Position numbers and translations under genes: made by a program | IMG/VR virus record: IMGVR_UViG_3300047470_000520 | Strand: one strand, 5' to 3' | DNA from: a virus | Lineage: Duplodnaviria; Heunggongvirae; Uroviricota; Caudoviricetes | DNA: 64,000 nt | Shown: piece after piece, positions 2-56,798 of the stretch | How positions within the stretch are numbered: position 1 is the first letter of the stretch | How the letters are laid out: the number at the start of each line of letters is the position of its first letter | Notes under the pieces: generated by a model | Told to the model about the DNA's origin: nothing | The model's input: the letters and a program-made list of their open reading frames with translations, nothing else | The model's database searches: none

Positions 2-457
2 CAGGCCATGATCGATTCGGCAGTCAGCAAGGAAGTGAAATACCTGAAGTACATCCCAAAGGACAAGATCAAGAGGGAATGCCTGGAGCGACTGGTTGTC
101 GATGGCACGGAATGCTCTACTGATCTTGAGGCAGCCGGGTTGCTCGACTTCATGAGCGACTTGATGCGTGGTGGTTATTGGCCGAAGCTGGTGGACAAGC
201 CGTCGTCGCCGAAGGAAGCCCTGTATCTCATGCTGGACGTCCATGTCGCGGCTGAAAACCTGAAGGTCTACTACAAGGCTTTTGTACGATCTCATCCAAT
301 GGATGAGGTGTTGCCGCTGATGAAGTCGCCCGAGATGCAGACCTTGATGCTTGAGATCTACCGCGACGAAGAACTCATCCCTCATCTTCGTACGGGATTG
401 CTCAAGGGTGCCGGCAGGGTCAGGGGAAAACTGCTGGAAAATGGATTGGGGCTCTGA
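2..457 (+). CDS. LGL-tail family 1 protein, 5'-partial (C-terminal half only in window)
   Basis: ORF is open to the window edge. It aligns to the C-terminal half of gene 460-1329 (GYWPK..KPSS..YYKAF.R.HPMDEVLPLMKSPE.Q.LML.IY). Ends RGKLLENGLGL*. Confidence 0.8.
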   Translation, partial: QAMIDSAVSKEVKYLKYIPKDKIKRECLERLVVDGTECSTDLEAAGLLDFMSDLMRGGYWPKLVDKPSSPKEALYLMLDVHVAAENLKVYYKAFVRSHPMDEVLPLMKSPEMQTLMLEIYRDEELIPHLRTGLLKGAGRVRGKLLENGLGL

Positions 458-459
458 CG

Positions 460-1329
460 ATGACGCGTAATGACGTGACCAAACGCATTAAGAGCGGGTA
501 TGCCTACCGCTTCGACGAACTGCCACAGGAACACCTGGACAAGAATTTGATTATGGCCTGGCTCCGTGGCACGGATGGGTCGCTTGCAGAGGTTCCAAAG
601 CACCTGATCGATGACGATATTCGCCGGCACGCTGTCAGCACCTCCCATGACGATATGCGCACTGAGGATTACCCGCTCAAGTCGATCTCTATGTCGGACA
701 CCCAGTGTTACGAAGAGTTGGTGATGCTGGCGCTTGCGCAAAGCTCCATGAACATGGAGTACGTTGATCATGCTCTGCACAGCGAAGAGTTTTTCCTGAG
801 GGCGCTGGACGTCAACTCACAGTGCATGATGGGGTTCTTGTCTCGCTGGGCAGCGACAAAGATTGAGTGGTCTGATGCATTGATTGATGCCGCGATCATT
901 AAATCATCGGTCTACATGCGATTTTTCGACAAAAGCAGGATCAAAAAAGAAACCGTGAAGCGTCTGGTCGCGGAGGGTTTGGTCAGTGCGACCGAGGTAG
1001 CCGGGACTGGGTTTCTTGATGCCATGACCGAGCTAATGTCTGAAGGATATTGGCCGAAAAAGGTGAAAAAGCCTTCGTCGATAGAAGGTGCTTTTGTTCT
1101 TCTGCTGGACGCCCATCCAAAGGTGGAAACCCTGTGCATTTACTACAAATGCTTTCTGCGCACCTATCCGATGGAAGACGTACTGCCGCTGATGAAGTCA
1201 CCAGAGCTCCAGGCGTTGATGCTGAGCATTTACACGACCGAGGAACTGAATCCACACCTCCGATCCGGCCTTCTCAAAGGCGCAGGGAGGGTGAGGGGGA
1301 AGCTGCTTGAGGATGGTTTAGGCCTTTAA
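460..1329 (+). CDS. LGL-tail family 1 protein (289 aa)
   Basis: Paralog of the upstream gene. Tail ...KGAGRVRGKLLEDGLGL. Starts 2 nt after the upstream stop. Confidence 0.85.
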   Translation: MTRNDVTKRIKSGYAYRFDELPQEHLDKNLIMAWLRGTDGSLAEVPKHLIDDDIRRHAVSTSHDDMRTEDYPLKSISMSDTQCYEELVMLALAQSSMNMEYVDHALHSEEFFLRALDVNSQCMMGFLSRWAATKIEWSDALIDAAIIKSSVYMRFFDKSRIKKETVKRLVAEGLVSATEVAGTGFLDAMTELMSEGYWPKKVKKPSSIEGAFVLLLDAHPKVETLCIYYKCFLRTYPMEDVLPLMKSPELQALMLSIYTTEELNPHLRSGLLKGAGRVRGKLLEDGLGL

Positions 1330-1334
1330 TTAAG

Positions 1335-1860
1335 GCTGTGGATGCACACATCTGATCTGTCGCAGGCTTGGTTCTTGACTATTCTGCTGGCACCTGTATA
1401 TTCGCGCCATGTCCGAATTCAAGCTCCAATACAAGCGCAACAACAACGTCGTGTACTCTTGTAAGTACAACGTTGTATGGTGCCCAAAATACCGCAGGGC
1501 CGTCTTGACTGATGGCGCCGACGTCCGCCTCAAGCAGATTATACAGGAGTCCTGTATCGAGCTTGAGTGTGAGCTGATTGAGCTCGAAGTGATGCCTGAT
1601 CACGTCAATCTGCTGGTCGAGGTCGATCCTCAATTCGGAATCCACCGCTTGGTCAAGCACATCAAGGCTAAATCTTCCCGTCTGCTGCGATCTGAGTTTG
1701 GCTTTTTGAAGTCAAGACTGCCCACCCTTTGGACAAACAGCTACTTTGTTTCCACTGTCGGTGGCGCACCGCTTGAGGTGATCAAGCAGTACATTGATCA
1801 GCAAAAAGACGTATGACACAAACAAGACGTCCAGCACCTAATCCATTACCCACGAAAGGG
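1335..1860 (+). mobile_element. IS200-type insertion sequence (tnpA only); ends approximate
   Basis: Single ~135-aa Y1/HuH transposase gene with no tnpB. Short non-coding flanks. Exact ends were not determined. Confidence 0.55.
1409..1816 (+). CDS. tnpA: IS200/IS605-family transposase TnpA (Y1 HuH)
   Basis: 135 aa. Typical IS200 TnpA sequence (YSCKYNVVWCPKYRR...HVNLLVEV...) and typical size. Confidence 0.9.
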   Translation: MSEFKLQYKRNNNVVYSCKYNVVWCPKYRRAVLTDGADVRLKQIIQESCIELECELIELEVMPDHVNLLVEVDPQFGIHRLVKHIKAKSSRLLRSEFGFLKSRLPTLWTNSYFVSTVGGAPLEVIKQYIDQQKDV

Positions 1861-1867
1861 ACTCTAC

Positions 1868-55103: not shown

Positions 55104-55157
55104 AGGGCCTGCCAGGCTGTGTAGGGTTGGTTGCTGGCCGTTTACGCTCTAAGAGAA

Positions 55158-55769
55158 TCACAACCCCAAGGCACTCTCAAGATGCCAGCCTTTGATTTTT
55201 CTGGCTAGCTCAGGTGGTAAACCAGAGGCAGCCTTAATACCAAGGATCTCGACAAAACTCTCTCCCCATCGCCTGTGATCTATCATTCGCTGAATCTGAT
55301 CCGGACTGCGTTTGCAGATCTCATCACAGACCTTTTCCGCCCCTCTGTCCGCGATGAGGCGGCCTATGTCGCGTTTGGTTTGCGCATTGTCTTCGAACTT
55401 CCCTACAGACCGCTGGTACGCATTTATCCAGACAAAGCTGCTCAAAAAAGGCTTTGCGCGCTCAAGTCCGTAGCTGTCCATGAAAAATCTGGCCTGATTG
55501 GACGTTGCGAACTCAAGTTCCCTGGCCACAATGCCAGGATCAATGCCCTCTAGATGAATGCGATAGATGTAGTAATCCCTCTCTGCGCTCACGAAGGTCA
55601 TGCCTGTTTCGAAAATCTCAAAGACAGGCATCTTTTTGTCGTATTGGATCGTCCCGTCAAGAACGAGACCGCGAGTCCAGGCCCGACGCTCATCCACGCT
55701 CATGTTCCAGAAAAGCTTTACGGTCTCTGTTTGAGGGTGAGTATCTTTGGCTGCGGTTGATTCGTTCAT
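55158..55769 (-). CDS. LGL-tail family 2 protein
   Basis: Tail IKGWHLESALGL. Confidence 0.85.
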   Translation of the reverse strand: MNESTAAKDTHPQTETVKLFWNMSVDERRAWTRGLVLDGTIQYDKKMPVFEIFETGMTFVSAERDYYIYRIHLEGIDPGIVARELEFATSNQARFFMDSYGLERAKPFLSSFVWINAYQRSVGKFEDNAQTKRDIGRLIADRGAEKVCDEICKRSPDQIQRMIDHRRWGESFVEILGIKAASGLPPELARKIKGWHLESALGL

Positions 55770-56131
55770 AAACCCAAGGCATCCTCAAGGTGACGCCCCT
55801 TGGCCTGCTTGAGCAGATTCTCTGGCAGCGCCTTGCCGGCTTCAATGCCGAACACATCAAGGAAGATGCAAGCGCCTGTTTTGTCTATCACCTGCGGGGC
55901 GACTTGGTCGATGCCAAAGCCGGACAAGATTCCACTCACCTGAACGTAGTCATCGCCAGCCTTAAAGAATCCGCTAAGGAGCAAGTCGATCAGGTTATTT
56001 CTGTTGTGGCCCAAGGGGATTGTTACATCCCCGGTGGCGATGGCCGAGAGAAAGCGTTTGCGCTCGCCTGGACTCATATCGCCTAGCGGGATTGTCCTGT
56101 TCAAAATGCGTTCTAACACGTGATTGCTCAT
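55766..56131 (-). CDS. LGL-tail family 2 protein, N-terminally shortened (121 aa)
   Basis: Start reassigned to MSNHVLERIL (ATG at 56131). The ORF's annotated 170-aa form would overlap the upstream gene by 86 nt. Tail AKGRHLEDALGL. Confidence 0.7.
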   Translation of the reverse strand: MSNHVLERILNRTIPLGDMSPGERKRFLSAIATGDVTIPLGHNRNNLIDLLLSGFFKAGDDYVQVSGILSGFGIDQVAPQVIDKTGACIFLDVFGIEAGKALPENLLKQAKGRHLEDALGL

Positions 56132-56192
56132 GCCGATCTCCTCGTTCTTGCAATCAGTATTGCAGTTGAGCCGTGGCCAAATGAAAGCTTTT

Positions 56193-56798
56193 TTAGAGGC
56201 CCAACGCGTCCTCGACATGCTGTCCCTTGAGCTTACGCGCCAAAGCGGGTGGAAAGAACGACGCCGCTTTGATACCAAAAATATCGATCATGATGCGGCC
56301 TAGTCGCTCATCACTCTGGAGAAGAAATTCAGAAGTAAAGGTTTCGGCTGCAATGTGTTCTGCGCCCCGGCATTCGAGGATGTACTTCACATGGTGGCGC
56401 GTCTCGAGCTTTGTACTGCCATCGCCGTAGACTTCAAGCCAAAGCCGGCTCGGGAGGAATGGCTTGGCGCGCTCATGCCCGTAGGACTCAATGAAGATCC
56501 TGGCGTCATCGCGACTTTCCATTTCCTTAGCCGAAACAGCCGGATCGATGGCTTCAAGTGCCATCCGGTAGCGGTAGTATTCTGGCTCCCACTCGCCATA
56601 GATGTCAGCGAGGTTGAGGATATCCTGAACGCTCAACGTCGCGTCGGAGGCGTACTCGCCCCTTTTGATCTGCTCGCGCACGAAAAACTCACGATCCTCG
56701 GGTTGCATGGCCGCGAAGGATTCAGCCAGTGCTTCTTCCCTCAGTCTTTTTTCGTTGAATTTTCGTAGCTGCTCCGGGCTCTGGCTCATTACGGGCAT
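56193..56798 (-). CDS. LGL-tail family 2 protein
   Basis: Tail LKGQHVEDALGL. Confidence 0.85.
   Translation of the reverse strand: MPVMSQSPEQLRKFNEKRLREEALAESFAAMQPEDREFFVREQIKRGEYASDATLSVQDILNLADIYGEWEPEYYRYRMALEAIDPAVSAKEMESRDDARIFIESYGHERAKPFLPSRLWLEVYGDGSTKLETRHHVKYILECRGAEHIAAETFTSEFLLQSDERLGRIMIDIFGIKAASFFPPALARKLKGQHVEDALGL

Follow-up and report, generated by a model that had tools for sequence, protein, structure and literature searches.

The 64,000-nucleotide stretch of DNA analysed here, IMG/VR virus record IMGVR_UViG_3300047470_000520, referred to as the window, encodes four protein families (families 1 to 4) whose extreme C-termini converge on nearly the same residues, an element termed here the tail. 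This shared end is real and statistically solid, and selection maintains it at the level of the protein. In its short form of four to six residues it is common to several truly unrelated families encoded on Pseudomonas megaplasmids that bear a secretion system of type IVB (T4BSS), and in the window it accompanies an operon with two proteins of the DotM fold. The tail is proposed to be a new motif at the C-terminus by which type IVB substrates are recognised, different from the canonical Glu-rich signal, a proposal given about an even chance of being right. An earlier note, made from the sequence of this DNA, had suggested that the motif may serve in export, targeting or turnover. The export-signal idea is plausible, and the genomic comparisons presented below point to a concrete candidate pathway and to candidate receptors.

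Tailed gene arrays and selection on their C-termini

With a GC content of ~52%, Shine-Dalgarno sites and ATGA gene overlaps throughout its 64 kb, the window is bacterial, and it is best explained as cargo DNA of a Pseudomonas-type megaplasmid of ~1 Mb, of the pMPPla107/pBASL58/pPL1 kind, whose T4BSS for secretion or conjugation is Dot/Icm-like but divergent. Family 1 forms an array of 32 paralogs of ~290 amino acids (aa) each on the plus strand (8-30123), which is broken by an IS200 transposase gene, a kdsA gene and a gene for an ERCC4/Hef-type nuclease. Its first two genes (8-457, cut by the window edge, and 460-1329) both end LLE[ND]GLGL, genes 3 to 13 (2795-12769; ~290-310 aa) end L[KR]GxxLE[DE]xLG[LIV] and mostly overlap the next gene by ATGA, and genes 14 to 32 (13556-30123) include a truncated member of 151 aa (27045-27500). 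Family 2 consists of 12 genes of ~190-200 aa on the minus strand (49228-56798), one of them truncated (52387-52788), with the consensus end F[VI]E[IV]FG[IL]KAxxxLPxxLAxQ[IV]KGxxLE[DE]xLGL. Families 3 and 4 lie between these arrays on the plus strand. Family 3 members a and b (36756-37604 and 37714-38748) end KHEDPGLGM and SYDGGLGL, in both cases after a charged, apparently low-complexity linker, members c and d (42475-43755 and 43938-45071) both end DDLSPGM, and the two genes of family 4 (39917-40558 and 40521/40599-41240) end RKDAGxLLSD[QR]LGL. No Pfam, NCBIfam or PADLOC model matches families 1 to 4, and the DUF4116 repeat (PF13475), tried for the tailed families, stayed below threshold (13-18 bits against a cut-off of 24.9).

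All of these ends read in the sequence as they had first been described, and the figure of about 50 genes given in the earlier note holds, with 48 ending [LMI]-G-[LMIV]-COOH and two ending LSPGM. Stop-to-stop open reading frames (ORFs) of 50 aa or more number 568, and [LMIV]G[LMIV] closes 49 of them, one spurious ORF and 48 tailed genes, to which the two further family 3 genes with the LSPGM end are added. The frequency of [LMIVF]G[LMIVF] inside window proteins is 0.0055, and such ends (ΦGΦ, where Φ is hydrophobic) occur at 4 of 37 window ORFs outside families 1 and 2, with P = 5e-5 when counted by genes and 0.018 when counted by families. In families 1 and 2 the consensus is Φ(-12) [KR](-11) [GAS](-10) x Φ Φ E(-6) [DE](-5) small Φ(-3) G L, with positions -12, -11, -10, -7, -6, -3, -2 and -1 conserved in class to 98-100%. 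Overall identity among the family 1 paralogs is only 20-30%, and conservation peaks in their last 12 residues, at 3.2 bits per column as compared to 1.7 on average. An intact tail is also retained by the N-terminally truncated members of families 1 and 2 of 133-151 aa (8-457, 27045-27500 and 52387-52788) and in the orthologous family 1 arrays of the related metagenome contigs L007 and L010.

Part of this conservation could conceivably be a nucleotide by-product of gene overlap and translational coupling, in which the terminal YTA TGA embeds the next ATG and LE[DE] encodes GAGGA. Among the 44 genes of families 1 and 2, 26 overlap the next gene, and in 23 of these 26 the last Leu is encoded by CTA or TTA, codons that are rare elsewhere in these genes, followed by TGA so that the next ATG is embedded. 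Furthermore, LE[DE] is mostly written CTT GAG GAN, which places GAGGA 12 nt upstream of the next start, and Glu(-6) uses GAG in 19 of 25 cases as compared to 57% in gene bodies. The overlaps, the rare Leu codons and GAGGA together suggest translational coupling along the arrays. As the main cause of the conserved residues, however, such dual coding by a ribosome-binding site and an ATGA overlap was largely refuted by the codon tables and is scarcely credible. The 18 non-overlapping genes keep L-G-[LVIM] with CTT, CTC, CTG or TTG followed by TAA, TAG or TGA, Gly(-2) uses all four of its codons and Leu/Met(-3) six codons, GAGGA lies farther from the ATG than the 5-8 nt typical of the Shine-Dalgarno sites of other window genes, and the upstream 20 residues are not explicable in this manner. 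Since the residues persist with different codons and stop codons in genes that do not overlap, selection acts on the protein, which bears out the notion of a conserved extreme C-terminus on different cargoes.

The long tail by descent and the short end across families

In contrast to the end itself, the description of the tail as a modular element of ~30 aa on four unrelated families did not hold. Families 1 and 2 share ~33 tail columns (hhalign E = 3.6e-7), but they are also homologous beyond them, as residues 175-280 of family 1 align to residues 17-114 of family 2 in the same register with E = 5e-5 after removal of the last 14-20 columns. Hence family 2, whose N-domain had been taken as wholly different, is homologous to the C-terminal third (~100 residues) of family 1, and the hairpin ahead of the tail is additionally repeated inside family 2. 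What families 3 and 4 have in common with this tail is confined to the last 3-12 residues. For family 4 the similarity extends over 14-23 columns and is weak (E = 5e-4 to 3e-3), and for family 3 it comprises only the last 3-4 residues and is not significant in profile-profile comparison. Thus, under a statistical test the similarity of the tails stood for families 1 and 2, was weak for family 4 and failed for family 3. When a 34-column tail profile was run against 1.84 billion representative proteins, all 85 hits were at the extreme C-terminus, and all hits inspected were family 1 or 2 proteins or fragments, which makes the long tail a lineage-restricted feature of a single superfamily. An AlphaFold model of one family 1 member (predicted local distance difference test score, pLDDT, 93; predicted template modelling score 0.85) is all-alpha with 21 helices, the tail being predicted as the last helix (290-300, pLDDT ~94) followed by three terminal coil residues. 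Families 1 and 2 are thus one superfamily, predicted to have a helical-repeat fold that closes with a conserved helix.

A family of ~130-147 aa on the opposite strand, conserved in the island (window 46338-46730, minus strand; L091 16383-19232 and L092 13927-15355 in related loci), ends F[HY]GKLIE[ED]L plus a few variable residues, which resembles L[KR]GxLLE[DE] of the tail. Its ~130-aa form was considered as a further tail bearer and rejected, as it was not significant with the tail hidden Markov model (HMM).

These results give substance to an explanation in which the tail caps a helical-repeat domain as an ordinary structural helix that families 1 and 2 inherited and that closes the fold or mediates self-association, while other LGL ends are coincidental or reflect the same structural solution and nothing reads the tail. 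The confidently modelled tail helix, the internal copy of the preceding hairpin in family 2, the homology that persists without the tail, the failure of the 34-column profile to match anything outside families 1 and 2 and the lack of significance for family 3 are all as such an explanation would have it. It is nevertheless judged unlikely, since the last 12 residues are the most conserved part of proteins that are otherwise so divergent, the last three residues lie outside the helix and hardly vary, and the truncated genes at 27045-27500 and 52387-52788 have kept the tail. Moreover, the [DE]xLGL end is found with strong enrichment on at least five families without detectable homology on related replicons.

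This recurrence of the short end concerns Pseudomonas megaplasmids of ~1 Mb (pMPPla107, pPL1 and relatives), on which at least five further unrelated families carry it, with unrelatedness judged by HMM or BLAST. Family 6 (~520-580 aa) has four copies on pPL1 ending [SG][KQ]DLGL and one in the related locus L092 ending RGKILESDMGM. On pMPPla107 three families, unrelated to each other and to families 1 to 6, have this end: a protein of 200 aa (GDLGL), one of 291 aa (RDLGL) and a pair of 483 aa (VDLGL and RDLGL). An ATP-grasp enzyme of L092 ends DGSTLGI, and a 440-aa ORF of pPL1 that the family 3 HMM does not detect ends EDDLSPGF. In a low-GC island assigned to "P. putida", orthologs of families 1, 3 and 4 end LENDLGM, IEADLGM, DDGPSL and LSDQLGV. 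Considered by family, family 3 orthologs end GFGM, DLSL or GPSL and family 4 orthologs LSERLGL or LSDQLGV. Compared with its frequency inside proteins, [DE]x?ΦGΦ is enriched as a terminus on pMPPla107 (190 kb sampled; P = 3.7e-4), in the pPL1 island (6e-7), in the P. putida island (2e-7) and in L092 (2e-8). Tail-bearing proteins lie in cargo regions, and none was found in the sampled backbone and T4BSS regions. On pBASL58, a 201-aa protein adjoining ParB ends SQLGL.

DotM-fold proteins and the type IVB system of related megaplasmids

Among the tailed genes of the window lies a conserved operon of five genes on the plus strand (34148-36658), whose products are candidate readers or adaptors of the tails. 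It comprises genes for proteins of 86 aa (34148-34408) and ~172 aa (34498-35013), two DotM-like paralogs of 165 aa (35036-35533) and 206 aa (35556-36176), and a protein of 157 aa (36185-36658). Both DotM-like proteins match Pfam DotM_C, as do seven of seven orthologs (best E = 4.5e-8), and they have the all-alpha fold of the DotM cytoplasmic domain (Pfam DotM_C; PDB 6EXA; fold search). Single sequences gave no match in PDB and a profile only a weak one (E = 0.1-0.3), the fold being found by fold search, and a scan of GTDB genomes with the DotM-like alignment returned no match. DotM of Legionella is a subunit of the coupling complex that binds Glu-rich C-termini of effectors (PMC5802825, PMC7280309). 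The earlier note had stated that no secretion machinery is present in the window, a statement that the two DotM-fold proteins at 35036-36176 show to be wrong. The operon co-occurs with tailed genes in every related locus examined, including the P. putida island, L092, L094 and pPL1, and in all loci the neighbours of the DotM-like genes are DUF808, three small proteins without assignment and tailed genes, rather than dotL or dotN.

Metagenomes supply nearly every homolog of families 1 and 2 and of the DotM-like genes, the related contigs reaching 1.11-1.28 Mb at ~52% GC. Nevertheless, a family 1 gene is present on the 910-kb plasmid of Pseudomonas sp. FeN3W, and the closest complete replicon with the island is pPL1 (1.17 Mb) of P. 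silesiensis G3. The best plasmid match of the window ERCC4 nuclease is on pMPPla107 (59%), and those of a 692-aa AAA+ protein are on pPL1 and pBASL58. The plasmids pMPPla107 (972 kb, 52.8% GC) and pBASL58 belong to a class of ~0.9-1 Mb with 52.8-55.4% GC, in which most genes are hypothetical, and both carry Pseudomonas-like housekeeping genes and a complete type IV system resembling Dot/Icm (PMC3136466, PMC6482414). MOB-suite types both plasmids as MPF_I. With DotA/TraY of pMPPla107 as query, the best plasmid matches are itself, pBASL58 (60%), pPL1 (39%, E = 3e-151) and the FeN3W plasmid (37%). A Pfam scan of the genes that flank DotA/TraY on pMPPla107 gave no useful information. Therefore pPL1, among complete replicons the closest one with both the DotM-like operon and tailed families, also has a T4BSS component. 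The tailed families, the DotM-like operon and DotA/TraY occur together on pPL1, and tailed families are also encoded on the T4BSS-positive pMPPla107.

The window resembles the pMPPla107 family in its inferred size class, a GC content of ~52-55%, Pseudomonas-like housekeeping paralogs, a majority of hypothetical genes, the ERCC4 nuclease and DLGL-tailed cargo, with a DotA/TraY-type T4BSS on relatives. It differs from pMPPla107 and pBASL58 in that the family 1 and 2 arrays and the soluble DotM operon were not found there by tblastn. Neither replication genes nor T4BSS genes of its own replicon came into view in the sequence analysed. These two plasmids are also described as tRNA-rich, whereas no tRNA gene, and no Rfam family at the gathering threshold, was found in the window, which covers only 64 kb. 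The first 50 kb of both plasmids (pBASL58 1-50000, L098; pMPPla107 1-50000, L101) form a syntenic backbone with ParAB, HU, sigma factors, RdgC, RecQ, DnaQ, DnaB and DnaE, and this shared backbone also has a thin-pilus-like GspE/PilC cluster.

On the preferred reading, the minimal [DE]-x-Φ-G-Φ-COOH would mark cytoplasmic cargo proteins as T4BSS substrates, an extended form, Φ-[KR]-G-x-Φ-Φ-E-[DE]-x-L-G-L, being used in families 1 and 2. Recognition would take place at the type IV coupling complex, with the two soluble DotM-domain paralogs possibly assisting as adaptors dedicated to this lineage, and the arrays of 32 and 12 genes would encode an arsenal of diversified helical-repeat binders, non-enzymatic in nature, for delivery to a recipient or target cell. 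The tail would thus be read by the T4BSS, the soluble DotM paralogs would act as readers and the tailed proteins would be translocated. Several features of the window recall the Dot/Icm effectors of Legionella and Coxiella, whose signals are situated at the extreme C-terminus of otherwise unrelated cytoplasmic proteins and combine a hydrophobic residue at -3 with acidic residues just upstream, and which form large, lineage-specific and mostly non-enzymatic arsenals of repeat proteins. Likewise, the tail is linked to replicons with a Dot/Icm-like system and to DotM-fold proteins. Position -3 is L, M or I in all 44 family 1 and 2 genes and is also hydrophobic in family 4. Dot/Icm substrates are reportedly dependent on a hydrophobic residue at -3 or -4 (Nagai et al., PNAS, 2005), and Leu or Met at -3 fits this requirement. 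No tail-bearing protein has a hydrophobic segment reaching a 19-residue Kyte-Doolittle value (KD19) of 1.6, in agreement with the claim that the tail has no transmembrane segment, and none has a signal peptide.

A number of observations weigh against this reading. The family 1 and 2 tails contain neither an E-block (0 of 44) nor the FxxxLxxxK motif (0 of 44), and positions -17, -14 and -11 are basic and only -6 and -5 acidic. The long version of the tail is explained by the common descent of families 1 and 2. The tail is sharply conserved in sequence, as [DE]xLGL or, in families 1 and 2, as a 12-residue consensus, and in family 1 it is predicted to form an ordered helix, whereas known Dot/Icm signals are mostly disordered, poorly conserved and defined by a compositional bias. 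With no E-block, basic upstream residues and an ordered helix, the assignment rests on context and not on likeness to a known signal, and a search of the available literature found no description of a DLGL-type secretion signal. In addition, when all sampled megaplasmid loci are taken together, the generic ΦGΦ end shows no enrichment (P = 0.13), only the fuller [DE]x?ΦGΦ form being enriched, and this in cargo regions only. Neither the window nor the 10 kb on either side of the island in eight loci yielded a T4BSS structural gene, a metagenome scan with the DotA/TraY alignment returned seven other contigs and not those bearing the arrays, and MOB-suite does not type pPL1 or the FeN3W plasmid as MPF_I, where DotA/TraY was the only component checked. 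The setting also differs from that of the Legionella and Coxiella effectors, as the hosts of tailed proteins are free-living pseudomonads, and their system is a megaplasmid T4BSS of the conjugation type.

Reservations of a similar kind apply to the soluble DotM paralogs, whose role as readers of the tail is a conjecture. DotM/IcmP, the Legionella coupling-complex subunit (PDB 6EXA, 7OVB), has N-terminal transmembrane helices, which both tandem window paralogs lack (maximum KD19 0.94-0.98), and the paralogs are encoded in the operon inside the effector-like island rather than next to dotL and dotN. R314 of DotM belongs to the patch that binds Glu-rich peptides (PMC5802825). R314/R315 are replaced by Pro-Ile in the window paralogs, and WLKPVDRRLW of DotM aligns with their WIEAIDPILF and WLQRIDPVLY. 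This loss of the Glu-binding arginines would, on the other hand, fit a tail that is hydrophobic and basic instead of Glu-rich. Finally, tblastn detects no soluble DotM-like operon on pMPPla107 despite its DLGL-tailed proteins, from which it follows that the primary reader, if there is any, may be the coupling complex of the system itself.

Recognition by other cellular machinery was weighed in the light of the same end, as L-G-L fits the class II PDZ-binding or C-degron pattern Φ-x-Φ-COOH, a pattern that by itself does not establish function. The tail could be a C-terminal tag for a cytoplasmic AAA+ machine or for a PDZ or tail-specific protease, that is, a degron or a signal for unfolding or handover, given that ClpX, Tsp and PDZ domains read ends of this kind (LAA of ssrA, YxF for DegS). 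A candidate reader is encoded next to the family 2 array on the plus strand (57835-59913), namely the 692-aa protein with a Lon-like AAA+ module (~420-610) without a protease domain, of which homologs exist on pPL1 and pBASL58; its N-terminal region of 420 aa is uncharacterised. Within the sequence examined, however, this gene did not turn up in the P. putida island, L092 or L094, no degron of the LGL type is known, the window has neither a protease nor a PDZ gene, and the linkage with DotM-fold proteins would be left unexplained. Turnover or unfolding is hence rather improbable as the function of the tail, and whether the AAA+ protein, an alternative candidate reader, belongs to the system at all is uncertain. 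Alternatively, the tail might act only after delivery, as a class II PDZ-binding-type or other docking motif in the target cell (Φ-x-Φ-COOH with acidic residues upstream), and not as an export signal. Effectors of bacteria and viruses are known to use C-terminal PDZ-binding motifs, and helical-repeat, non-enzymatic scaffolds look like binders. Such a docking role is very improbable, since nothing points to a eukaryotic host, the megaplasmids belong to pseudomonads of soil and plants, and bacteria are the targets of the one Pseudomonas T4BSS that has been characterised (PMC9519443).

Comparison with other C-terminal elements places the putative type IVB tag apart from each of them. XVIPCD of the X-Tfe effectors of Xanthomonas and Stenotrophomonas, which are substrates of antibacterial type IVA systems (PMC8740702), likewise is a conserved C-terminal element on different cargo domains that is read by a coupling protein and serves delivery to bacterial targets. 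However, XVIPCD comprises ~120 residues that fold as a domain, and its reader is the VirD4 all-alpha domain of a type IVA system; the tail has no sequence similarity to it and no Pfam match. Metalloproteases and lipases secreted by type I systems carry a C-terminal four-residue motif, acidic and then hydrophobic, such as DVIV. The tail is similar in having acidic followed by hydrophobic residues at an uncleaved extreme C-terminus, but the tailed proteins are without RTX/GG repeats and no genes for an ATP-binding cassette transporter, a membrane fusion protein or TolC are located nearby. In this respect the earlier statement that the tail does not represent GG repeats of type I secretion was confirmed, no Pfam or NCBIfam match of that kind being obtained in the tailed proteins or their neighbours. 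An encapsulin cargo-loading peptide of the LxIGSL type was rejected, as its motif differs and no shell-protein match was found among the scanned window ORFs. The kib T4BSS island of P. putida IsoF, with its 31.9-kDa immunity protein, differs in GC content and has its own DotM.

Neighbouring genes and implications for megaplasmid biology

The remaining genes of the window bear on its origin and mobility. Upstream of the DotM-like operon lie genes for an SPFH/Band-7 protein, a 210-aa membrane protein and a YedI-like DUF808 protein (31719-34029), and the island is followed by an Hsp20 gene (46908-47372) and by a ~1-kb stretch at 47.4-48.4 kb (47372-48417) with only short overlapping ORFs. The order Band-7, membrane protein, DUF808, island and Hsp20 is kept in the P. 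putida island, which has a GC content of 0.517, and in L092, so that the block moves in its entirety; the P. putida host group has ~62% GC. Between families 4 and 3, an ATP-grasp enzyme of the R2K clade (41271-42500, plus strand) is conserved in the island in all lineages. Because ATP-grasp enzymes activate carboxylates, a link to C-terminal tails is conceivable. With the DGSTLGI end of its L092 ortholog, this enzyme is also a possible enzymatic substrate of the tail system. Its own C-terminus varies, reading PGLGDAEPSID in the window and STPGLD, NMDLG or STLGI in relatives.

Inside the family 1 array, an IS200-type tnpA gene (1409-1816) adjoins kdsA (1868-2707; GC 0.567), whose product is 92% identical to P. 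putida-group copies. As a taxonomic marker kdsA was set aside and is taken as a hint only, owing to this position next to IS200 within the array; it resembles a captured housekeeping paralog, as described for pMPPla107-type megaplasmids. The ERCC4/Hef-like nuclease with helix-hairpin-helix motifs (12829-13482, minus strand) is a marker of the replicon type outside the tail system. It is found at the same place in the relatives L007 and L009 and has homologs on 137 Pseudomonas plasmids, the pMPPla107 homolog being part of a 613-aa protein. At 61477-62133 a weak match to ART-PolyVal was obtained (19.9 bits, cut-off 31.2), an ADP-ribosyltransferase that belongs to the polyvalent proteins of phages and conjugative elements.

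Since 2011 the question has stood whether plasmids of the pMPPla107 type use their Dot/Icm-like system for conjugation only or for protein secretion too; searches with known effectors had no result (PMC3136466). Of the genes on such plasmids, about three quarters are hypothetical, and no exported protein of the plasmid's type IVB machine is known. If the tail is indeed a sequence-defined tag on many unrelated cargo families, it would offer a direct way to list candidate substrates, and a single tag that can be tested with one reporter assay makes a clean experimental system. The soluble DotM-fold proteins, if they act as proposed, would be the first detached and duplicated receptor domains of a coupling complex. 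In a wider and more speculative version, doubtful as a whole, the Dot/Icm-like conjugation machine of the megaplasmid would inject proteins along with DNA, with [DE]-x-L-G-L-COOH, as a sharply defined tag, addressing a large set of both helical-repeat binders and enzymes, which would diversify rapidly and, for instance, disarm competitors or the defences of recipients, and the soluble DotM paralogs would be a new class of interchangeable substrate receptors that reprogram the coupling complex away from Glu-rich signals. Even if the secretion reading is wrong, the window reveals a family of more than 44 paralogs at 20-30% identity with a helical-repeat fold that has no close structural relative.

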